From Gemmatimonadota bacterium (GTDB lineage: Bacteria > Gemmatimonadota > Gemmatimonadetes > Palauibacterales > Palauibacteraceae), in assembly GCA_046758745.1 (NCBI GenBank), contig JBHIAV010000066.1:1-12472 (forward strand): a DNA stretch of 12,472 nt, in the 5' to 3' direction. Positions 2,182 to 12,472 of the stretch are shown one piece after another (position 1 is the stretch's first letter; every line of letters begins with the position of its first letter). A program made the translations under genes and the position numbers. The notes under the pieces are model-generated. The model was not told where the DNA came from and did no database searches. It saw only the letters and a program-made list of their open reading frames with translations.

Positions 2182-2293
2182 CGATCCCCGAGCCCGATTT
2201 GAGTAAGCTGTGCCCGACGTGGGAGCGGCGCATGGCACGCATCCACCAAGTGCGCAGGCGATACGATCCCACCGCATCGCCGGAGGCGAGCGC

Positions 2294-2324
2294 AGCTGCA
2301 CCACCGGCCTCACGCTGATCAGGC
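2294..2324 (-). repeat. Degenerate tRNA-Ile(GAU) fragment / att-like core, copy A
   Basis: Minus strand GCCTGATCAGCGTGAGGCCGGTGGT matches the tRNA-Ile anticodon loop to T-stem segment with 2 changes. It is 28/31 identical to 11757-11787. Confidence 0.8.
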
Positions 2325-2482
2325 TGGGCGAAGGCATCCCTGACTGCGGCATGATGTTGGGAAAAGCCTTATTTGGCGAGGTTTCTGCCGGGATCCGGGA
2401 GCGTTTCCGACATCGCGCCGGACGGTAGGTGGACGTCCCGGCGCCGGAACAATCCCGGCGGCGTCTCCGAAATGTCGCGTCG

Positions 2483-4051
2483 TCAGCGCCCGCGTGACGC
2501 CCCGTCCCTCCCCACCTCTCCCCAGCGGGCCAGGAAACCCGTCACGAACTCCTGCACCTGCACGGGCTCGACGGCGAGGGACGCCAGCGCCATCGCCACC
2601 GTGAGGGCCAGGTGGTAGCCCTCGGAGCGCGAGGCCACGGCCCGGCGGTAAGCCGGGTGCGCGTCGTTTACCCACACGGTGGACTCGACGAGCCGGCCCA
2701 GAGAGCTGTCGTCCGCTCGGCTCTCGAAGCGGATGCGGAGCCCGTAGCGGGCTGGAATCTTTCGCGCGCCGCCTCCCGGGATGGCCGCGTCCGGGAGCTT
2801 CTTCTCCGGCGGCCCTCCCTCCGGCTCTGTGCCCTTCTTCTCCCGATCCGGGCCGACAGGCTCCTCGCTCGCGGGTTCCTCATGAGCCGGAGACCCCCCG
2901 GGCTCGAGCTCCACGCCAGGGCCGGGGACCACCCCCCGCGGGGAGGGCTCGCCGCCGAGGGGGAGGCGCCGCTGGCCGCCCCGGCGCCGCTCCACCAGCG
3001 TGGCCAGGAGCGGGTAGTCCTCGGAGAGCCCCGCCAGGACGGACTGGAGGTCCCGCTCCAGGGACCGCGGCCGGGGACGCCGGGGGCCTGAGGTCCCCGG
3101 GCCCTCTCCCCACGCCTCGAGCTGCATCGACACCGCCTCCTGGATCGCCTTCCGGTAGCCGAGGAAGACGGCCCCGCGGGGCCCCGCGCGGACGAAGTCC
3201 GCCTTGTTCAGGGTGAGGGACTCCGCCAGGGGCGGCACCTCGATCAGACCGCCCACGTCCGCCGGCCGGCTCGGGGAGATGCCGAGCCAATCCCACCCTG
3301 CCTGGATCACCTTGCCCAGCGTGCTCACGGCGATCCCCCGCTCCTCCTCGGCCAGAGCCGGATCCCGGTGGAGGAAGCCGACGCCGGAAGCCTTCCGCTG
3401 CCGCCCGACCCGGACCTCCAGCGACACCCGGCCCGGGTGGAGGGCCGTTCGGGCGAGGAGGCGGCCGTTCAGGTGAAAACGGACCCCGTGCGGATACTGG
3501 GAGGCCAGGATGTCGTCGAACGCAGGGTCGAAGAGCGGCCGGAAGTGGCGCAGGAGGCTTCCCTCGATGAAGCCCGGGTCCAGGAGCTGAGAGAGAGCGT
3601 TCTCCAGGTACAGCCGGACCGCCGTCCCGCCCCCATCGAGTAGCGCTCGGGGCTCGACCCAGCGCCAGGGGGCGCGCGTTCGGGAGGCGAGGCGCCAGGA
3701 GGTGGCGAGCGGCGTCCGTGCCCGGGCCGTCTTCGTCTCGGTGACCACCTCCTCGGAGACGAGGAGCCCGAGCTTGATCCCGACCCCCGCGAAGCCGATG
3801 CCCCGCCCGCGCCGCTTGCTGGTCACCGCGAGGTCATGGTAGCGGGCGAGGGCGCTTCGCCCCATCCCCTTGCCGTCGTCGTTCACCGTCAGCGTCCCGG
3901 CGACGGAATCGGCGACGATGTACACCTCGCCGGCCCCCGAGTCGAGGGCATTGGCGACGATCTCGGTGAGGATCGTCTCCTCGAGCGGGCCGGGGTAGGC
4001 GTCCCGGAGGTCCTCTAGCAGGCGGAGCAGGTCGACCCGGGTCTCTCCCAT
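2483..4051 (-). CDS. GHKL (HATPase_c / MORC-like) ATP-binding protein, 522 aa
   Basis: Start MGETRVDLL. GHKL motifs: TEIVANALDS (N box), DDGKGM (G1), GFAGVGIK (G2), GGGTAV. Then GLIEVPPL..LTLNKADF, a Pro/Glu-rich linker and a C-terminal VWVNDAHPAY. Confidence 0.88.
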   Translation of the reverse strand: MGETRVDLLRLLEDLRDAYPGPLEETILTEIVANALDSGAGEVYIVADSVAGTLTVNDDGKGMGRSALARYHDLAVTSKRRGRGIGFAGVGIKLGLLVSEEVVTETKTARARTPLATSWRLASRTRAPWRWVEPRALLDGGGTAVRLYLENALSQLLDPGFIEGSLLRHFRPLFDPAFDDILASQYPHGVRFHLNGRLLARTALHPGRVSLEVRVGRQRKASGVGFLHRDPALAEEERGIAVSTLGKVIQAGWDWLGISPSRPADVGGLIEVPPLAESLTLNKADFVRAGPRGAVFLGYRKAIQEAVSMQLEAWGEGPGTSGPRRPRPRSLERDLQSVLAGLSEDYPLLATLVERRRGGQRRLPLGGEPSPRGVVPGPGVELEPGGSPAHEEPASEEPVGPDREKKGTEPEGGPPEKKLPDAAIPGGGARKIPARYGLRIRFESRADDSSLGRLVESTVWVNDAHPAYRRAVASRSEGYHLALTVAMALASLAVEPVQVQEFVTGFLARWGEVGRDGASRGR

Positions 4052-4132
4052 GACCGCGAATATGCCTCCGGGAGCCGGACCGGCCAAGCGGAGGTTGGCA
4101 CCGTAGGGCCAAGGGCCCGGGTCGGATTGCGA

Positions 4133-4329
4133 CTACGACGAGCTGCCGGACTCGCGACGACGCAGGATCTGTCGCAGAACGATGATGTCTTCCCGGTCTT
4201 GCGGTCGGCCGCCTTCTTGGAGCGGATGAAGTCGGCGAGCCCAGCGGCGAGCAGCTCCACTCCGAACACCTCGAAGCGCACCGCCCCCTCGACCAGATCC
4301 TCGTATCCTCGGGTTCCGGAAGGCACGAA
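4133..4329 (-). pseudogene. Frameshifted 3' remnant of a nucleotidyltransferase-family protein
   Basis: FVPSGTRGYEDLVEGAVRFEVFGVELLAAGLADFIRSKKAADR changes frame near 4200-4208 into PQDREDIIVLRQILRRRE...*. Joined, this gives the typical L.D.I.SK.AA.RP.D..D ending. Confidence 0.75.
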
Positions 4330-4459
4330 GGCTGAGGCCGTGTCCTTCGGACGATGTTGGAGCCGAGCGGTCCGGCCATCGCCGCGCCCTGCGACCCCGC
4401 CACCCGCAGCGATCGCCTTTCGCGCGTGCCGCCGCTGACAGCCCCCTGCCGCGAAGTCT

Positions 4460-4776
4460 CCGAGCTTCTACAGCTCCGGGGGAAGCCACCTACGACCTTC
4501 GTTACTGGCTGGACCTGGAGGTCGAGGCCGACAGCGCCCCCAAGGATCTGGACCTCTTCCTCCGCTTCGAGTGGCTGGAGTCCTGCGGGCACCTGAGCGC
4601 CTTCGAGATCGTCGGGCGCGTCTACGGGGATGGGTACGGATCTGTTCGTTCTGCGGGTACGGGGAGGAAAACTCGTTCTGCTGGATGCACACGCGACCGC
4701 CCACGGGTGCGGGGAAGATGGTCTCCTGCCCGTTGTAAATTCGCCGCGCATGGGGGTGTGCGCATACGAGGGTTGA
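4460..4776 (+). pseudogene. Degraded Cys/His-rich conserved hypothetical protein (possibly related to pRiA4b ORF-3-like proteins)
   Basis: Pieces in shifting frames: LLQLR / EATYDLRYWLDLEVEADSAPKDLDLFLRFEWLESCGHLSAFEI / ICSFCGYGEENSFCWMH / ATAHGCGEDGLLPVVNSPRMGVCAYEG*. Missed by the ORF track. The 5' boundary is approximate. Confidence 0.75.
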
Positions 4777-4982
4777 GGGGCCCAGGGCCTGGCGCTCACT
4801 CTCAGCCCGTCGCGGCGCCCGCCAGGGCGCTCACGCTTGCGTCGGCCGGTGCCCTAAGCGACAGCCCCGACCGCGTGGACGCCCGCGGGGATCGATCCGC
4901 GCGGATCGGGGCGGCACTCACGCTGGGAGAAGGTTAGACCAGCCTCCGGTTCCGCACGAAGAGCGGCTCGGCGTCCCGGGAC

Positions 4983-5435
4983 CTACCGCTTCGCTGCCTC
5001 GGCAGTCTCCGCGGGGGCCACCCCCAGCTGCGACAGAAGGGTCAGCATGTCGAAGTACTGCCGCATCGAGATGGCCTTGCCGCCTCGGATGCGAATCACC
5101 TGACAGGATCGGAGCGCGATCCTCTTGCCCGTCGGCGGGATCTCGCCGTCCGGGAGCGGGAGCGGCCCGGTATGCGTGCCCCGCCACGTCAGCGGGAGCA
5201 CCACCGTGTCACCGTCCACGAAGGGGTCCTCAAAAGTCGCCCGGGAATCGGGCAACGCCTTCGCCCAGCCGCGCCACAGGTCGATGACCTCGTCGATCCC
5301 CTCGGCTTTGCGGTACGTCGCCACTTCGTCGTACACGAACTCCGGTGCTAGGGCGTTGCGGACGGCGTCCCAGTCCTTCTCGCCGTACGCTTCGGATGGG
5401 GCCTTGGCAGCCGTGATGAGTTCCTGGCGGGACAT
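4983..5435 (-). CDS. SnoaL-like ester cyclase (NTF2-like fold), 150 aa
   Basis: AGGAGG RBS before ATG at 5435. Motifs GDTVVLPLTWRGTHTGPL, IPPTGKRI, RQYFDMLTLLSQLG. Confidence 0.93.
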   Translation of the reverse strand: MSRQELITAAKAPSEAYGEKDWDAVRNALAPEFVYDEVATYRKAEGIDEVIDLWRGWAKALPDSRATFEDPFVDGDTVVLPLTWRGTHTGPLPLPDGEIPPTGKRIALRSCQVIRIRGGKAISMRQYFDMLTLLSQLGVAPAETAEAAKR

Positions 5436-5686
5436 CTGGTCCTCCTGTGGTGGAAGGCGGGTAGCTCCGGCTGACGGGGGCCTCTGGGGCGCGGTGGACC
5501 GTCGGTCAACTCCGGGCCGGTCGCCACGCGTGCAGGGTTGGGCGAGCGCGAGCGGTGCCCGCGGCCGAGCCGGAGCGCCGACCACGTCGCGGGTTCACCA
5601 GTACGCTCCAAGCTACCACACTTCCGACACGCGAGCTACCTGCCTCCGACATGACCACTGGCGGCCGCCGCAACGTGCGTGCCCGG

Positions 5687-6433
5687 TCAGCGCCGGGCGG
5701 CCATCGCCTCCGGGATCCGCAGGGCCTCCTCCAGCCGCACCGTCATGCGCGAGTCCTGCGGCATGACGGCCTCGTGGTCCCTGGTCGTCACCATGATGAG
5801 GGTGCCCGCCAGGCCGCCCGCCGCCGCGCCCGCCAGGGTGGCGGCAGTGCTGTTGCCCAGCAACCCTCCCAGCAGCGCGCCCGCCGCGACGCCGCCGCCC
5901 ACGATGGCCACGTCGCCCAGGGTGCTCCGGTTGGCGTCCTCCTTGGTCACCGCCCTCAGCACCCGCGCGTTGACGGGGATGCGCCGGCCGTTCACCTCCA
6001 TGTCGACGGGCCGCACGGCAATCACGTTCTTCGTGTCTCCGTTCACCTTGCGCTCGCCAGCCTCCGTGACCTCCCCGGTCAGTCGGGCGCCGGAGGCGAT
6101 CACGACGCGCCCGTCGTGCATGATGTCCGTGTCGAGGATGCCGGTGAAGCGGTCGCCGACCTCGTTGTCGTCGCTGCTCAGACGCTGAGTCAACCGCACC
6201 TCGAACTCGGTGCCGGCCGGCACGACGATGTCGCCTCCAGAGCCGGATTCCGAAGCGGAGACCGAGGGGGAGTGCCCCCGGACGGCCCGCTCGAACAGCG
6301 AGATGCTCTGCGCCGACAGCGGGGCCGCCAGGGCCAGGGCGAGCAGCGCTACCAGAGTCGGAGTGGCCGCCAGAGCCGGTCGGGCGGGGAAGAGTCGCTT
6401 CGTTCGCAGGGGAAGTCCTAATCTGTTTTCCAT
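5687..6433 (-). CDS. Secreted hypothetical protein with a TrbI/VirB10-like beta domain and glycine-zipper segment
   Basis: Signal peptide (LVALLALALAAPLSA-Q). Motif VPAGTEFEVRL..RLSS...VGDRF...DGRVVIASGARLTGEV and GGGVAAGALLGGLLG. GGAG upstream of ATG 6433; alternative start 6448. Confidence 0.8.
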   Translation of the reverse strand: MENRLGLPLRTKRLFPARPALAATPTLVALLALALAAPLSAQSISLFERAVRGHSPSVSASESGSGGDIVVPAGTEFEVRLTQRLSSDDNEVGDRFTGILDTDIMHDGRVVIASGARLTGEVTEAGERKVNGDTKNVIAVRPVDMEVNGRRIPVNARVLRAVTKEDANRSTLGDVAIVGGGVAAGALLGGLLGNSTAATLAGAAAGGLAGTLIMVTTRDHEAVMPQDSRMTVRLEEALRIPEAMAARR

Positions 6434-6673
6434 GGCTCGCGTCTCCATCTATCCAAGGTGTCGGCCCGCGACGTCGTGGGCCGGCACCCCCTGGGGGAAC
6501 GCGCGCCCTACGCGCTGCTCTCGTGATATGGAAAACACGCCTTCCCCGGGGGACGGTTCCGGCCCGCGGTGAGGGCAGCGCGACAAAGCCGCTAACCAGA
6601 GGCCCTGACGATCAAGTAGGTTCAAGTCGGCCCACGCGCGACGAACAGACCTGCGTCAGCGGAAGGACCGAGG

Positions 6674-6970
6674 CTAGCCTGGGTCCGGCGCCTCGGTGTC
6701 GGGCAGCGCCGCGGCGGGCACCGCCGTGGTTTGGCGGCAGCAGTCGACCAGCTCCTGTAGACGCGCGGGGCTGAACCCGATCACCAGGTCTTTTCCATGC
6801 GCGATCACGGGGACGCCGACACCACCGGAGATCGTCCGCCACTCCCGTAGGTGTTCCACGTCTTTCGTGATGTCAAGTTCTTCGAATTCGCACCCGTTTC
6901 CCCTAAGCCAAGCCTTCGCTTGCTTGCAGTAGGGACACGTGGGGGTCGTGAAGACCCGGATCTGGGCCAT
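6674..6970 (-). CDS. Glutaredoxin-like (NrdH/YruB-type) redoxin, 98 aa
   Basis: AGGAGG RBS. FTTPTCPYC active site, GVPVI cis-Pro loop, VIGF. Confidence 0.93.
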   Translation of the reverse strand: MAQIRVFTTPTCPYCKQAKAWLRGNGCEFEELDITKDVEHLREWRTISGGVGVPVIAHGKDLVIGFSPARLQELVDCCRQTTAVPAAALPDTEAPDPG

Positions 6971-7164
6971 AGTAGCCTCCTGTTTCGAAGGGAGCCGCGG
7001 TACTGGCGCACGTCTCGCCCCGCGTTTGTTGAGACTGCTAGACGTCGGCCCGGACGGCCGTATCCCCCCGGTGGATGAGGTTGAAATGTCCCCCCCGGGG
7101 GCTTGCGGCCTCTTCCTCGAGAACCACGTCTGGGGGCACGTAGAAGTCGCGCCCGCCAGGCACC

Positions 7165-9894
7165 TCACCCACCGCCCCCCTCCAGCCGATCCAGCAGTGC
7201 CTCTAGCCTCCGGATCGTCGCGCGGAGCTCCTCGCGGACCTGGTCCACGAGCTCCGGGTCCGCCCGGGCTGCGGCCGCCTCCGGCCCCGGCACGGCGGCC
7301 TCGGCGACCGGCGCGACCGCGGGCAGCTCCCCGATCAGCGCGGCGACGGAGGCGTCGAGCGTCTGGTGCATGACCACCTGACGGGTGTCGGCCAGGATGA
7401 TGCGACGGAGCTCCGGGAACTCCAGGGTCTCCGGCTTCAGGAAGACCGGCTCCGCGTAGAGGATGGCGTCCCCCATCGGGATGACCAGCAGGATCCCCCG
7501 CATCACTTCCGAGCCCACCTGACCCCACAGCGTGAACTGCTCGGAGATCACCGCGTCGTTGTCGATCCGCGCCTCGATCTGGTTGGGGCCGTCCACGTGC
7601 CGCCCCGTCGGGAACCGGAACAGGATCCGCTCGCCGTAGTGCTCGCCATCGTTCCGGGCCGCCATCCACCCCACCAGGTTATGCCGGTTGTCGGGCGTGA
7701 ACGGCTGGATCAGCAGGAACTCCTCGGCCTCCTCGCCCGGCAGCCGGGCCACGATGTAGTAGGACCGGAGGGGTGCCGAGCTCCCGAAGGAGGTCTGGAC
7801 CGGCACGTCCCACTGGTCCTCCTTGTTGTAGAAGACGACCGGGTCCCGCATGTGGTACTGGAGCAGCATCTGCGTCTGCACGCTGAACAGGTCCAGGGGC
7901 ACCCGGACGTGCGCGCGCAGATGCTCCGGCATCGCCTCCCGCGGCTTGAAGAGCCCGGGGAAGATGGCCTGGTAGGTGCGGACAAGCGGGTCGTTGGGAT
8001 CGAAGACGTAGAAGTCCACGCTCCCTTCGTAGGCATCCACGACCGCCTTCACGCTGTTCCGGATGTAGTTGAACCGGCGGTTCCACCTCGTCGCGTAGGG
8101 GTAGCGGCGCGTGACCGTGTAGGTGTCCTGGATCCAGGACACCCGGCCGTCGGCGACCACGGCGTACGCCTCGCGGTCCCGCATCAGAAACGGGGCGATC
8201 GTGCCCACGCGCTCGGCCACCGTCCGGCGGTACTGGATGCGGCTCTCCGGCCCCACCTCGCCGGTGATCAGGATGTTCAGGTCGCCGAACTGCCAGGCGT
8301 ACAGCAGCCGTCGGAAGAGCGAGCTCACCCGCACACCGCCGCCCCCCTCGTAGCGGATGTACTCGGGTCCCTCCGGCCCCGGGTAGTTGAACTCCTGCAT
8401 CCCCGTGCGCGCGATCACGAAGTCCAGGCTCCGGAGGCCGTAGTAGATCTCGGGACGCTCGAGCGGGATCCGGCCGACCGGCGGGACGTCGCGGATCAGG
8501 AAGGCGGGTCGCCCGCCGGCCTGGACCTCGGTCACGGGGCTCATCGCCACCCCGTAGCCGTGGGTGAACTGGAGGCGCCGGTTCACCCAGCGCTGCGCCT
8601 CGGCCGGGAGCTTTCCGGCCGACAGCTCGCGTGTGGCGAGCATCACCTGTCGCAGCTCGCCGTCCACCGTGTAGCGGTCGGTGTGCACGGCCAGGAAGTC
8701 GTAGTAGAGGCGGAAGAACTGGATCTGATTGTAGCTCTGGAGCAGCGGGCCCTCGTCCCAGAGCCGGATGTTCCGGATCGTCCCGCGGTTGCCGGCGACC
8801 GTCTCCCCCTCGATCGCGCCGCGGGCCGGATGGTCGCGCGACGTCAGGCCTTCGAGCCCGAAGGCGCGGCGCGTGAACTCGATGTTGCTGGCCAGGTACT
8901 CCCGCTCCAGCGCCAGCTCGCTCGGCTCGACGCGCAGCCGCTGGACCGCCACGGGCGCGACGATCCCCACCAGGATCCACGCGGCGGACCAGCCGACCAC
9001 GGGCCACAAGATCCACCGGCGTTCGCGGGAGAAGACGCCGCCGACGAACACGAACCCGGCGGTCGCCGCCGCGACGGCGGCCAGCAGCGTGCGGCCCGGC
9101 AGGTGCACGTGGTCGTCGGTGTAGCCGACGCCGAACACCGTCCCGGTGGGCGAAAACAGCAGCTCGTAGCGCCCCAGCCAGTGTCCGACCGCGATGAGCA
9201 GGAAGGTCGCCGCGCCCAGGGCCGCCAGCCGCTTCCGCACTCCGGCCTCGAGCCACGCCGGATCGCCCCGAAGGTTGCCGGTCACGTAGTGGAAGCCTAC
9301 GAGGATCACCCCGAGGCCCACGACCGCCGCCAGGAGCCAGCCGTGTGCCAAGCGCAGGGCCGGAAGCGTGAAGATGTAAAAGGAGAAGTCCCGGCCGAAG
9401 ATCGGGTCCGACTCGCCGAACGGGACGGCGTTCAGGGCGAGCAGCACCGTTTCCCACTCCGACGCGGCGTACAGGCCCAGGAGGACGGCGGCCAGGAGGA
9501 CGACCGCGGCCACGCCCCGGACCAGGAACTTGTGGAGGAAGTGGTAGTCCAGCACCTCGAGCGGGGCGTCAGGCAGCGGCGGCCGGTCGCTGGAGCGGCC
9601 CACGCCACGCAGGCCGAGGAACCCCAAGCCCAGGAAGAGGACGACCGCGAGCGCAAAGAGGACGACCCGGGTCGTCACGATCTCGACCAGCACCGCCTCG
9701 TACCCGAGCTCGCGGAACCAGAGCCAGTCGGTGTAGAACCCCCGCGACCAGTTCAGCCCCGCCCACACCAGGATCAGCCCCAGTACCCAGAGCCCCCAGC
9801 GCATCAGCTGGCGGATCCGGTCGACGTCGACCGAGCCGAGGTCGATCTTGTCCGACGCGCCCTTGCGGCGCTGGAAGTCTGGCAGGTCGTTCAT
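7165..9894 (-). CDS. UPF0182 family membrane protein, 909 aa
   Basis: YTDWLWFRELGY, DPIFGRDFSFYIFTLP, GYTD, NIRLWD, FTHGYG, PEIYYG, NYIRNSVKAVVDAYEG, YHMRDPVVFYNKEDQW, GPNQIEARIDND; multiple N-terminal TM helices. Confidence 0.97.
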   Translation of the reverse strand: MNDLPDFQRRKGASDKIDLGSVDVDRIRQLMRWGLWVLGLILVWAGLNWSRGFYTDWLWFRELGYEAVLVEIVTTRVVLFALAVVLFLGLGFLGLRGVGRSSDRPPLPDAPLEVLDYHFLHKFLVRGVAAVVLLAAVLLGLYAASEWETVLLALNAVPFGESDPIFGRDFSFYIFTLPALRLAHGWLLAAVVGLGVILVGFHYVTGNLRGDPAWLEAGVRKRLAALGAATFLLIAVGHWLGRYELLFSPTGTVFGVGYTDDHVHLPGRTLLAAVAAATAGFVFVGGVFSRERRWILWPVVGWSAAWILVGIVAPVAVQRLRVEPSELALEREYLASNIEFTRRAFGLEGLTSRDHPARGAIEGETVAGNRGTIRNIRLWDEGPLLQSYNQIQFFRLYYDFLAVHTDRYTVDGELRQVMLATRELSAGKLPAEAQRWVNRRLQFTHGYGVAMSPVTEVQAGGRPAFLIRDVPPVGRIPLERPEIYYGLRSLDFVIARTGMQEFNYPGPEGPEYIRYEGGGGVRVSSLFRRLLYAWQFGDLNILITGEVGPESRIQYRRTVAERVGTIAPFLMRDREAYAVVADGRVSWIQDTYTVTRRYPYATRWNRRFNYIRNSVKAVVDAYEGSVDFYVFDPNDPLVRTYQAIFPGLFKPREAMPEHLRAHVRVPLDLFSVQTQMLLQYHMRDPVVFYNKEDQWDVPVQTSFGSSAPLRSYYIVARLPGEEAEEFLLIQPFTPDNRHNLVGWMAARNDGEHYGERILFRFPTGRHVDGPNQIEARIDNDAVISEQFTLWGQVGSEVMRGILLVIPMGDAILYAEPVFLKPETLEFPELRRIILADTRQVVMHQTLDASVAALIGELPAVAPVAEAAVPGPEAAAARADPELVDQVREELRATIRRLEALLDRLEGGGG

Positions 9895-10156
9895 GACGGC
9901 AGTGCACTCCCGATGGACGGCTGACCGGGCACTCCGGCGTCCGCGGGGTCGGAAAGGTCGATCGCCGCGCCTCCGGAGCGGTCCGGGCCGAGTCCCTGGC
10001 CATGAAGCTAGGGGTCGGGCCCGGAGCCTGCGAGCGACGGGCTTCGGCGCCGGTTACACAACGCAGCTGCCGGCGCCGCCGGCCCGTTGCGTCCGATGCG
10101 GTGACTCAGCAGATTCCCTCTCCCGAGCCAGCCGATCCCCCGCACCCGCTGGCGCC

Positions 10157-10648
10157 ATGTTCCTCGACGCGATCAAGAGCCTCTTCGGCGCTCGGCCGGG
10201 GGAGCCACCGGAAGCCCCCGCGGACCACAGCCCCGAGACGGATCCCATGCCCGTGGCGGCCTGCGCCCTCCTCCTCGAGGTCGCGTACGCCGACGGGGAG
10301 TTCTCGGAGCAGGAGCGGGCGCACCTGGAGGCTGTTCTGGAGCGCCACTTCGGCCTCGCCCCGGAGTCAGGGCGGCGGCTGCTCGAACTGGCAGAGACGG
10401 CGCGCCGGGAGGCCGTGGACTACTACCGTTTCACGTCCATCCTGCGGCAGAACTACGACCTCGGGCAGAAGATGGTCCTGGCCGAGGTCATGTGGGGGCT
10501 AGTGTTGGCGGATGGGGAGATCGCGAAGCGGGAGCAATACCTCACCCGCAAGATCGCCAACCTCCTGGACCTGAAGCCCGGCTACCTGTCGAGCGCGAAG
10601 CAGGCGGCGGCCAAGCGGATCTGCTCGAGGGAGGGAGGGGAGCCGTGA
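10157..10648 (+). CDS. TerB-family protein, 163 aa
   Basis: AACALLLEVAYADGEFSEQE...HFGL...MWGLVLADGEI..REQYLTRKIANLL, the TerB-type double ADG pattern. Start chosen at MFLDAIKSLFG. Confidence 0.9.
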   Translation: MFLDAIKSLFGARPGEPPEAPADHSPETDPMPVAACALLLEVAYADGEFSEQERAHLEAVLERHFGLAPESGRRLLELAETARREAVDYYRFTSILRQNYDLGQKMVLAEVMWGLVLADGEIAKREQYLTRKIANLLDLKPGYLSSAKQAAAKRICSREGGEP

Positions 10649-10791
10649 CGCGGCGTCACCGGGCCGGGCGCGAGGCGGGGCGCGTCTTCGAACGCCTGCT
10701 GTGGCTGAGCGCCTCGGACAATCAGGGAGTACGGTTCCTCATCGAGCCGGTCGCCGCGGGAGAGCCGTGGGAGAGGAGCCGGGGGACCTGA
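10645..10791 (+). pseudogene. C-terminal remnant of a TPR-like conserved cytoplasmic protein
   Basis: EAGRVFERLLWLSASDNQGVRFLIEPVAAGEPWE matches a recalled C-terminal motif VFERMLWLNP.DNQGVRFL...W. Only 48 codons remain; its GTG overlaps the TerB stop (GTGA). Confidence 0.55.
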
Positions 10792-10857
10792 GCACGCCGC
10801 GGCGCCGTGTGTGCAGCCACGTCGCTCGTCCAGCCGGTGCTCGCTAGGTTTACTTGT

Positions 10858-11088
10858 ATGAGGTTTCGACCCCTCGACACGACGGCGGATGCTCTCCAGG
10901 CGCAGCGATCGGCTCTGAGCAAGCTGGATCCGGAAGCCCGCGTCCGCGCGGCGCTCGAGATGAGCGACTCGACCCGCGGCCTCCGCCTGGCGGGCCTCCG
11001 CTCACGTCACCCCGAGGCCTCGGAGAGGGAGCTCGTCGCGCGCTTCATCGCCGAGGCGTACGGGGTCTGGCTGGACCCGACCGGGTGA
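10858..11088 (+). CDS. Small helical protein, putative antitoxin partner of the downstream nucleotidyltransferase, 76 aa
   Basis: DTTADALQAQ...LDPEARVRAALEMSD...AGLRSRHPEASERE, a pattern typical of small genes preceding such NTases. GTGA overlap with the next gene. Confidence 0.8.
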   Translation: MRFRPLDTTADALQAQRSALSKLDPEARVRAALEMSDSTRGLRLAGLRSRHPEASERELVARFIAEAYGVWLDPTG

Positions 11089-11657
11089 CGCTCGAGACGT
11101 TCCTCCGCCGCGTCGTCGCGATTGTCGGCGACACCGGGATTCCCTACATGCTGACGGGCTCGATCGCGGTCGCCTACTACGCGGAGCCCCGAGCCACGCG
11201 GGACATCGACGTCGTGATCGCCGTTTCGCCCGGGGAGATCGAGCGACTGCTGCGACGGCTGGATGCCGAGGGGCTCTACGTGAGCCACGAGGCCGCGCGC
11301 GAAGCGCTGCGTCGACAGAGCCAGTTCAACGCGATCGACCCCGAATCAGGGTGGAAAGTGGACTGGATCGTCCGCAAGGATCGCCCCTTCAGCCGGAGGG
11401 AGTTCGAGCGCCGGCGATCGGTGGAGCTCATGGGTCTGGAGCTGCCCATCGCAACGCCCGAGGACCTGATCGTCGCGAAGCTGGAGTGGGCTCAGAAAGG
11501 TGCTTCGGAACTCCAGCTCCGCGACGCCCTGGCGATTCTCCTTCAGCGTGGGCGCGAGCTCGACCGTGGCTATATCGAGCGGTGGGTCGGCGAGCTAGAC
11601 CTCGGTCCTGAATGGGGCGTGGTACTCGAAGAAGCAAAGCGCGAGGAAGAGGCGTAG
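11085..11657 (+). CDS. Pol-beta-superfamily nucleotidyltransferase (DUF6036-like), putative toxin, 190 aa
   Basis: GTG start overlaps the upstream stop. Motifs YMLTGS....Y..PRATRDID, KVD, TPEDLIVAKLEW, QLRD, LDRGYIERWV. Confidence 0.88.
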   Translation: MTLETFLRRVVAIVGDTGIPYMLTGSIAVAYYAEPRATRDIDVVIAVSPGEIERLLRRLDAEGLYVSHEAAREALRRQSQFNAIDPESGWKVDWIVRKDRPFSRREFERRRSVELMGLELPIATPEDLIVAKLEWAQKGASELQLRDALAILLQRGRELDRGYIERWVGELDLGPEWGVVLEEAKREEEA

Positions 11658-11699
11658 GGGACGCCGTTTCCCCGCGTGGCCCCACCGAGTCGGGAACCA

Positions 11700-11787
11700 T
11701 GGGCCCGGGTGGATTTGCGGCGTTGTCCAGCCCCGCGAGCCCGCGTTAGCGGGTGGAGCGGCACCACCGACCTCACGCTTATCAGGC
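11700..11787 (-). repeat. tRNA-Ile(GAU) 3' half (att-like, copy B) interrupted in the T-loop by 45 nt
   Basis: Minus strand reads GCCTGATAAGCGTGAGGTCGGTGGT-[45 nt]-CAAATCCACCCGGGCCCA: anticodon loop CTGATAA, T-stem GGTGG/CCACC and acceptor 3' strand. The 5' half of the tRNA is absent. Confidence 0.9.
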
Positions 11788-11851
11788 AGAGACAAGTACC
11801 GCCGGATTCCGCCAACTTGCTGCGATTTAGGGGATTCGGCGACATGTTGAT

Positions 11852-11909
11852 CGGGCTCAGGTTGCAGGATGTCGGGCTCCACCGGGCTCAGTAGACACCT
11901 TGTAGACAC
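11852..11909. repeat. Putative integrase arm-type and accessory-factor sites
   Basis: GTAGACAC twice (11891, 11902) and CGGGCTC three times (11852, 11873, 11883), about 65-120 bp from the att-like core. Confidence 0.55.
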
Positions 11910-12093: not shown

Positions 12094-12225
12094 AGACAAT
12101 TCTTGGCGAAAGTTACGATACACGTTATTTTTGCAGAGAATCGTATCTCTGGACCGGCAGGTTGGGTACCGAGACGATTCTTGGCCAAAGTTACACCGAA
12201 CGTTACATTAGAGGAGAACTGTATC
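12094..12225 (+). promoter_or_regulatory. Duplicated inverted-repeat operator upstream of abiEi
   Basis: Two AT-rich 54-bp units (12094-12147, 12172-12225), 40/54 identical, with 21 of the first 23 nt identical. Each unit is an imperfect palindrome. The second ends 2 nt before the ATG and contains GAGGAG. Confidence 0.75.
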
Positions 12226-12227
12226 GC

Positions 12228-12472
12228 ATGCGCGCACGCGACTACATCCGCGACCTGGCCGCGAACGGACGCTATCACTTCACTACCCAAGAGGCAATCG
12301 CAACTGTCGAGGGTGAGCCCGCCTCCGTTCGAGCTCAGTTGCGCCGGTTGAAGGAGCAGGGTCTGATCGCCGAGCCGGTGCGCAGTTTTCACGTCATCGT
12401 GCCCCCGGAGTACAAGCGCCTGGGGTGCCTGCCTGCCGAGCAGTTCATCCCGCAGCTCATGGATCTTCGCGG
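12228..12472 (+). CDS. abiEi: Type IV toxin-antitoxin AbiEi-family antitoxin (runs off window)
   Basis: MRARDYIRDLAANGRYHFTTQEA...LRRLKEQGLIAEPVRSFHVIVPPEYKRLGCLPAEQFIPQLM: winged-HTH N-terminus plus the IVPPEY...G.LP motif. Not in the ORF track because it has no stop in the window. Confidence 0.88.
   Translation, partial: MRARDYIRDLAANGRYHFTTQEAIATVEGEPASVRAQLRRLKEQGLIAEPVRSFHVIVPPEYKRLGCLPAEQFIPQLMDLR

Follow-up and report, generated by a model that had tools for sequence, protein, structure and literature searches.

Short structured inserts recur at a fixed T-loop base of tRNA and tmRNA sequences in Gemmatimonadota

We observed that a tRNA-Ile(GAT) 3' half (positions 11,700–11,787, minus strand), an att-type island scar, carries a 45-nt insert in place of T55, and that this insert belongs to a real, recurrent family that is apparently undescribed. 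The fragment lies in a 12,472-nt stretch of Gemmatimonadota DNA (contig JBHIAV010000066.1; the window), whose source genome comprises 3.08 Mb in 130 contigs with 68% GC and is 87% complete. A preliminary description of the window had reported that one T of the T-loop is replaced by the insert, that the insert contains a CCCGC-TAAC-GCGGG hairpin, and that a second fragment (copy A; the 11,700–11,787 fragment is copy B) leaves the tRNA at the same base. The minus-strand sequence is exactly as stated, the hairpin is present, and both copies exit after T54 (Table 1).

Table 1 Coordinates of the features in the window, and loci of related T-arm copies
Feature	Position	Strand	Remark
Copy B tRNA-Ile(GAT) 5' piece, anticodon stem/loop to T54, 25 nt	11763..11787	-	displaced 3' half begins here, attR-type
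Copy B insert, 45 nt, replaces T55; 'type 1' two-hairpin family	11718..11762	-	model score 42.2 bits, copy itself in training set
Copy B tRNA-Ile 3' piece, C56 to discriminator base, 18 nt	11700..11717	-	
Insert hairpin 1: GC/GC base, TCC/TC internal loop, CCCGC-TAAC-GCGGG top	11735..11759	-	plus-strand loop is cGTTAg
Insert hairpin 2: 3-bp stem, 8-nt loop	11719..11732	-	closing pair CG, UA or GC among homologues
Copy A tRNA-Ile piece, anticodon stem to T54	2300..2324	-	same break base as copy B
Copy A partial type 1 insert, 26 nt, most of hairpin 1	2274..2299	-	hairpin 2 and tRNA 3' piece deleted
Imperfect palindrome, putative att arm motif	11805..11822	-	common to upstream arms of other tRNA-Ile fragments
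Direct repeat GTGTCTAC, two copies, ~120 nt upstream of fragment	11890..11909	-	putative integrase arm-type sites of upstream cassette
Cargo segment between copies A and B	2325..11699	.	nucleotidyltransferase/antitoxin-like pair, TerB, UPF0182, glutaredoxin, SnoaL, HATPase
T-arm-only copies with insert	L264, L265, L268, L272, L282, L285, L286, L318, L320, L389		

Both tRNA pieces of copy B match intact tRNA-Ile(GAT) genes of relatives, and T55 alone is missing. ARAGORN called no tRNA in the window and listed no tRNA-Ile in the 87% complete source assembly; by analogy with relatives, the intact gene would sit upstream, past the contig end. The insert is not an assembly error, since it is bridged by assembled contigs from three of four sequencing runs (one study; one run is possibly the source). 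All three bridging contigs have T rather than C at position 11,736 of the plus strand, and none skips the insert. The copy A insert is a weak model match (E 0.25) but stands in exact register, and its 26 nt match a complete insert from another genome (L242) at 24/26 positions. The closest homologue of the copy B insert is 89% identical and comes from another genus (G011), while copy A is dissimilar, which suggests that the two copies are of separate origin. It had also been proposed that the insert re-supplies TCCACCCG at the T-stem spacing. This holds for the window copy and fails for the family, in which 1 of 35 distinct inserts does so and a full 5-bp stem at that site is possible in 3 of 35 with G-U pairs allowed; the rebuilt T-stem is a coincidence private to the window copy.

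Searches for homologues of the junction and the 45-mer, which the preliminary description had suggested, placed the insert in dozens of genomes and several tRNA types. Two main types were found. Type 1 (43–48 nt) belongs to the window's family and type 2 (55–68 nt) to its sister family. An insert-only covariance model of type 1 matched 29 of 114 genomes of the window's family, unevenly by genus (10/16 genomes in one, 0/12 in another). In the sister family, the type 2 model (65 nt) matched 27 of 31 genomes, with up to 13 matches in a single one. A third type is present in one genus (g16; G030, G123); there, the insert sits in a full-length tRNA-Ile copy ~345 nt before the intact gene and in T-arm copies behind that gene (L149:4993-5690, L247), and the junction retains TTCAA. 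The full split form of the window stretch was matched in 7/60 relatives. A metagenome pattern scan returned 45 loci, 35 of which carry such an insert when read by eye. The corresponding scan of a genome collection (at least 120 matches, swamped by chance coding matches, from which the split-fragment loci were retained) gave 10 split tRNA-Ile loci among the matches listed, and the titled ones are Gemmatimonadota. Phylum-wide, a strict broken-Ile pattern occurred in 3 of 401 genomes, all in the window's order; resting on a single tRNA-Ile sequence, this pattern is uninformative for other tRNAs. Samples of two other phyla gave 2/81 and 1/81 weak matches, none at a tRNA, and five further genomes gave none (0/5). 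Among class-level matches weaker than ~E 1e-3, 13 of the 18 contexts read lie at tRNA or tmRNA T-arms and 5 elsewhere. Rfam searches of the window and six loci returned only tRNA or sub-threshold matches, leaving the insert without a known RNA family, and a full-text literature search, with most subscription journals outside its coverage, found no description of such inserts.

Inserts are frequent in tRNA-Ile fragments: 28 of 61 carry one, 25 do not and 8 are otherwise truncated, compared to 2 of 24 full-length tRNA-Ile genes, each beside an intact copy (census of 60 regions from the pattern list, partly picked for several matches per contig). The junction reads T54, insert, C56, a break inside the 7-base T-loop, and the loop bases 3' of the insert agree with the recipient tRNA. 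With related inserts included, the type 1 junction occurs in Ile, Arg(TCG), Arg(ACG), Gly, Pro, Ala and Ser tRNAs and in tmRNA; the type 2 junction occurs in at least nine tRNA types (Ile, Pro(TGG), Pro(GGG), Gly, Arg(CCG), Ala, Lys(TTT), Lys(CTT), Leu). Beyond Ile fragments, the type 1 model itself found inserts in T-loops of fragments from Arg(TCG), Arg(ACG) and Gly tRNAs and in short T-arm copies that closely follow intact tRNA-Arg genes, and type 1 inserts also form tandem doubles and sit in one full-length tRNA-Ile pseudocopy. With a broader model, related inserts also appeared in T-arms of Ala, Pro, Ser and Arg(CCG) tRNAs and of tmRNA; several of these come from other families of the class. 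Read by eye, 32 of 33 type 1 contexts are flanked by a tRNA T-arm on one or both sides.

Most junctions lack T55: T is the first base in 4 and the last in 3 of 47 type 1 junctions, and the first in 0/55 for type 2, in automated censuses in which some rows are mislabelled (an Arg copy as Trp, a tmRNA as Ser), the two Pro types GGG and TGG are merged and ~6 junctions are shifted. Three copies in G167 are inserted at the same place with no base lost. G354 has four related longer inserts that point the other way and occupy the mirror position of a palindromic TTCGAA loop; together, the reversed and the clean copies fit an oriented, sequence-directed insertion. In every case inspected, the site on the element strand is TTYG^AA, with the element replacing or adjoining the middle base of G-A-A. 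No target duplication beyond a possible single A was seen beside TTYG (or TTCGA), in both orientations.

Several further arrangements were noted around these junctions. One tRNA-Ile fragment (L177:88) has T55 changed to A and no insert, and shares its upstream arm with the insert-bearing L189; it is possibly an excision footprint or a point mutation. T-arm-only copies with an insert (Table 1) lie ~65–75 nt behind intact tRNA-Arg, -Ala and -Ser genes, with a spacer of near-constant length and varying sequence, and L263 contains a 115-nt tandem unit. Reverse-oriented relatives of ~100–130 nt with a variable middle lie behind tRNA-Cys, -Ser and -Pro genes of G354 (L322, L390, L391), and these are the best candidates for tracing an autonomous form.

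Conserved structure, proposed earlier as a check, was found in the form of two hairpins that covary among homologues. Across 34 type 1 inserts, the two tandem hairpins have 94% of cells paired and 5 of 12 pairs changed on both sides, which none of 500 shuffles reached and for which slid controls gave at most 63%; relatedness inflates such tests, and the structure was picked by eye from the same sequences. One pair, compared across tRNA types, is GC in 17/32 inserts and CG in 14/32. In type 2, hairpin 2 covaries at 5 of 10 pairs. The window 45-mer alone folds no better than shuffles (z = -1.24); support for the structure comes only from the covariation of its homologues. On the antisense strand, the loops read cGAAg, cGCAg, cGGAg, cGTAg or cGNNAg, with all four bases as N in cGNAg and GA/GNA in internal loops, which is a signature of DNA mini-hairpins; such G..A loops cap 49 of the 71 Watson-Crick hairpins of type 1 and 19 of the 28 of type 2. 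GCGNAGC/GCGNNAGC are described as extra-stable DNA mini-hairpins that are less stable as RNA, with N4 promoters and single-strand priming signals among the places where mini-hairpins are found (PMC13037366). As a point against, by nearest-neighbour energies (DNA parameters) the antisense strand is lower in 16 of 36 type 1 inserts, and neither strand is favoured.

On balance we lean towards a gene-less, two-hairpin element that inserts at a fixed T-loop base and moves as folded single-stranded DNA by means of an enzyme acting in trans. The tRNA-Ile 3' halves would be displaced halves from serial island integration at the anticodon loop, in line with established integrase biology. Inserts lie in them between T54 and C56, and about half of the sampled halves carry one. 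The strand opposite the tRNA, with its G-N-A or G-N-N-A loops closed by C-G, would fold as DNA and be the active form. This strand would be joined into the G-A-A of the T-loop hairpin at TTYG^AA, replacing the middle A without duplication. Insertions into a sole working tRNA gene would be lethal and purged, leaving the element to persist in fragments and in spare gene copies. Having entered a tRNA type, it would also spread between homologous fragments by copying or with cassettes. An interrupted fragment is likely unable to rebuild a working tRNA on excision and would lock the neighbouring cassette in place. A bolder version is rather doubtful: a new kind of minimal mobile DNA, in which a 45–65 base single-stranded element would recognise the universal tRNA/tmRNA T-loop and take the place of the middle base of its G-A-A through an enzyme outside the known HUH, IS91, GIY-YIG and RT candidates, living as a parasite of the att scars in tRNA-anchored cassette arrays and making their excision lethal.

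Similar to the inserts are REP/REPIN sequences, which are 20–50 nt GC-rich hairpins that act as single-stranded DNA, with RAYT (TnpA-REP) transposases. The insert differs from these in having no GTAG/CGTC tag, 1–13 copies rather than hundreds and no extragenic dispersal, and no RAYT gene flanked by the insert was found. Like PATEs of the IS200/IS605 group as described in PMC3119063 and PMC7290912, the inserts are short and gene-less, lack terminal inverted repeats, have hairpins near both ends, produce no target duplication and lie beside a fixed sequence of 4–5 bases. At 43–68 nt, with no coding capacity and with two covarying near-terminal hairpins, they have the properties by which PATEs are recognised, and PATEs of 52 bp consisting only of termini exist (PMC3119063, PMC7290912). 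Unlike these, the insert usually replaces one target base, which is intact only in the G167 and G354 variants and a few type 1 copies; loss of a target base is no part of IS200/IS605 insertion as described in PMC7290912. It also differs in targeting tRNA and tmRNA T-loops, having never been seen at dispersed sites, and in that no related IS605 element or active Y1 transposase was found in the 10 genomes tested. The SMR-A/B short mobile repeats of Haloquadratum, in the account of PMC3119063, are likewise small (80–110 bp) and show no target duplication, insertion within hairpins, mobilisation by means unknown and a proposed disabling of the target. SMR-A/B have terminal inverted repeats and target PATE/IS605 palindromes (PMC3119063), whereas the insert has two tandem hairpins and a T-loop target. 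We conclude that the insert family belongs, as a variant, to the non-autonomous hairpin mini-elements; it is specialised for T-loops of tRNAs and tmRNA and kept in att scars.

A search for free copies, long forms and a mobiliser gave mostly negative results. The source genome has two insert copies, both in tRNA-Ile fragments, and no free-standing copy by model search. Viral contigs contained no insert copy (one chance match across searches), plasmids matched the tRNA part only (0/65 records cover 80%), and no empty or circular form was found in contigs of the four runs. The preliminary description had raised longer versions carrying a recombinase; none turned up in the loci examined, where orphan 3' pieces and truncated copies lack an enzyme gene, and many copies, copy A among them, are truncated or decayed. 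The single 1-kb long-form candidate (L018) was rejected, its ORF being membrane-protein-like.

The search for Y1 (HUH) transposases covered 10 genomes. None was found in G042 (a single contig with 13 insert copies), G354 (a single contig), G202 or G295; the fifth genome of this set has Y1 genes, with flanks unrelated to the insert. A transient Y1 supply in trans may nevertheless have operated. Separately, all five genomes tested from the window's family (L312–L316) share a single syntenic, degenerate-looking Y1 (HUH)-like gene without repeat flanks, between what by eye are an apparent cystathionine synthase/lyase gene and a phosphomannomutase-like gene; this Y1-like gene is possibly domesticated. 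GIY-YIG matches in 5–10 genomes fell mostly in long, UvrC-sized ORFs, and reverse transcriptase and IS91-type Y2 genes each occurred in one of five genomes; none of the three provided a linked candidate. An integron integrase was rejected on junction position, since its chemistry would leave T54 and T55 joined.

The host fragments form a pattern of their own. In relatives, tRNA-Ile 3' halves from the anticodon loop onward lie in tandem, 2–9 kb apart, downstream of an intact gene; same-orientation fragments downstream of the intact gene were found in G001, G090, G042, G046, G038 and G067. Short direct repeats occur upstream of 53 of 86 fragments, mostly ~100–125 nt away, compared to 2 of 37 full-length genes and 1 of 123 shuffles, and the imperfect palindrome in 31/86 fragments versus 0/37 full-length genes. 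The layout is that of displaced fragments left by tyrosine-integrase islands in tandem arrays, as described in PMC4383910 and PMC8371274: a 3' half from the anticodon loop, in the same orientation, with arm-like repeats upstream. It differs in the damage, which in the Islander descriptions is a small deletion near the 3' end rather than a structured T-loop insertion (PMC4383910, PMC8371274). The segments here also differ in being 2–9 kb and mostly without an integrase. No integrase was found in the cargo segment between copies A and B, and among 107 ORFs scanned in array segments (chosen from 257 called) a single match, a remnant, was obtained; the arrays thus look like decayed or trans-mobilised cassettes.

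We further noted that the tRNA-Ile-anchored cargo cassettes of 2–9 kb (window 2325–11,699; L142–L161) have arm motifs common across genera, are almost all integrase-free and carry recurring cargo (UPF0182, kinase-TPR, BTAD-TPR, SnoaL, DinB, AbiEi/AbiEii); they resemble a cassette array made from tRNA att sites. Directly behind copy B (10,807–11,657, plus strand) lie genes for an Rv0078B-like antitoxin and a nucleotidyltransferase (DUF6036/AbiEii-like), both with weak Pfam scores. At 12,094–12,147 and 12,172–12,225, two AT-rich 54-nt direct repeats, 74% identical, precede an AbiEi-like gene starting at 12,231 and probably belong to an operator or promoter. In run X4, one contig has a type 1 hairpin fused directly to 12,172. 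In L176 and L198 (1523 onward), the insert of a tRNA-Ile fragment passes via a short common stretch into a tRNA-Gly 3' part, a chimera of two att arrays.

The relatedness of the inserts bears on how they spread, and here recombination alone has to be weighed against a dedicated enzyme. Identity is 0.93 for 16 pairs within genomes and 0.73 for 335 pairs between genomes, without control for kinship, and G079 has near-identical inserts between different arms, so that copying appears to be recent. In G012, both copies have a foreign GATGG T-stem strand together with the insert. In one pair of loci the upstream DNA is identical and the inserts differ; in another the downstream DNA is the same and the inserts are almost alike. 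An insert that moves together with the 3' half would be expected to give this pattern; these pairs were drawn from loci mostly selected for carrying inserts. All of these observations favour, as does the failure to find a cognate transposase, an account in which one or a few ancient insertions were spread by recombination alone, with no dedicated enzyme now and the missing T55 inherited. Gene conversion between fragments, rare hops via the common GGT...CGA T-arm bases and travel in cassette att sites would then do the work. We regard this account as possible, though on the improbable side. It leaves unexplained the conservation of the stems and GNA loops, the reversed copies of G354 at the mirror position, and the high insert frequency despite a steady supply of insert-free halves. 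For type 2, identity is 0.80 for the same tRNA type in different genomes versus 0.74 for different types in the same genome (noisy parsing), a partial sorting in keeping both with rare jumps plus inheritance and with frequent transposition. Overall, the patterns fit targeted jumps to new T-loops together with homology-based copying, with which an active enzyme and recombination alone are both compatible.

We consider it unlikely that the insert is a device selected by host or cassette, either to disable an att fragment (blocking excision or RecA deletion, or serving as a decoy) or as a functional structured RNA or single-strand priming signal. The T-arm copies that in several genomes follow intact genes for tRNA-Arg, -Ser and -Ala, the conserved structure and the known mini-hairpins of priming signals and N4 promoters (PMC13037366) speak for it. 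Against it, the distribution is patchy by genus, many copies are truncated or decayed, and any insertion would break an att site, making a conserved fold unnecessary.

The preliminary description had called the insert the scar or miniature form of a T-loop-targeting element. The miniature, recurrent and T-loop-targeting part of this stands, while the integrase-element scar does not, as nothing is duplicated. Its alternative, a recurrent way of inactivating att sites, names a likely effect of the insert and at most a putative function. The T loop is indeed a known integrase crossover subsite in tRNA genes (PMC4383910), and some T-arm-only duplications (42–51 nt spacer) and the 115-nt tandem unit look like tiny islands. 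Unlike a tyrosine-integrase T-loop element, however, the insert restores no tRNA 3' end and leaves no duplicated fragment at the window junction; nothing is restored or duplicated in most Ile copies either, which argues against such an element. The junction lies within the 7-base loop rather than at its edges, only the window copy has the apparent re-supplied stem, and no integrase-bearing long form was found, so that a scar or minimal form of this kind is largely refuted and very improbable. Finally, it is barely conceivable that the insert is a tRNA intron removed after transcription or, as the preliminary description had allowed, unique to this locus through local duplication plus drift: a few full-length tRNA copies do carry inserts (G089, G030, G123, G038), but an intact gene is also present in G030, G123 and G089, splicing could not give back the missing T55, and the homologues in dozens of genomes refute local duplication.

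If the favoured reading of a mobile two-hairpin element is true, the inserts would rank with the smallest known site-specific mobile elements, with a target loop in every tRNA gene, and their enzyme would be a compact T-loop-directed insertion tool. The many natural variants provide a ready list of candidate structural rules. If recombination alone is responsible, they would still show clearly that a structured sequence can spread by way of att sites. The inserts also change how tRNA-anchored islands are read, as BLAST-based island finders miss split fragments, and cargo may become fixed in the chromosome when its att site is interrupted.
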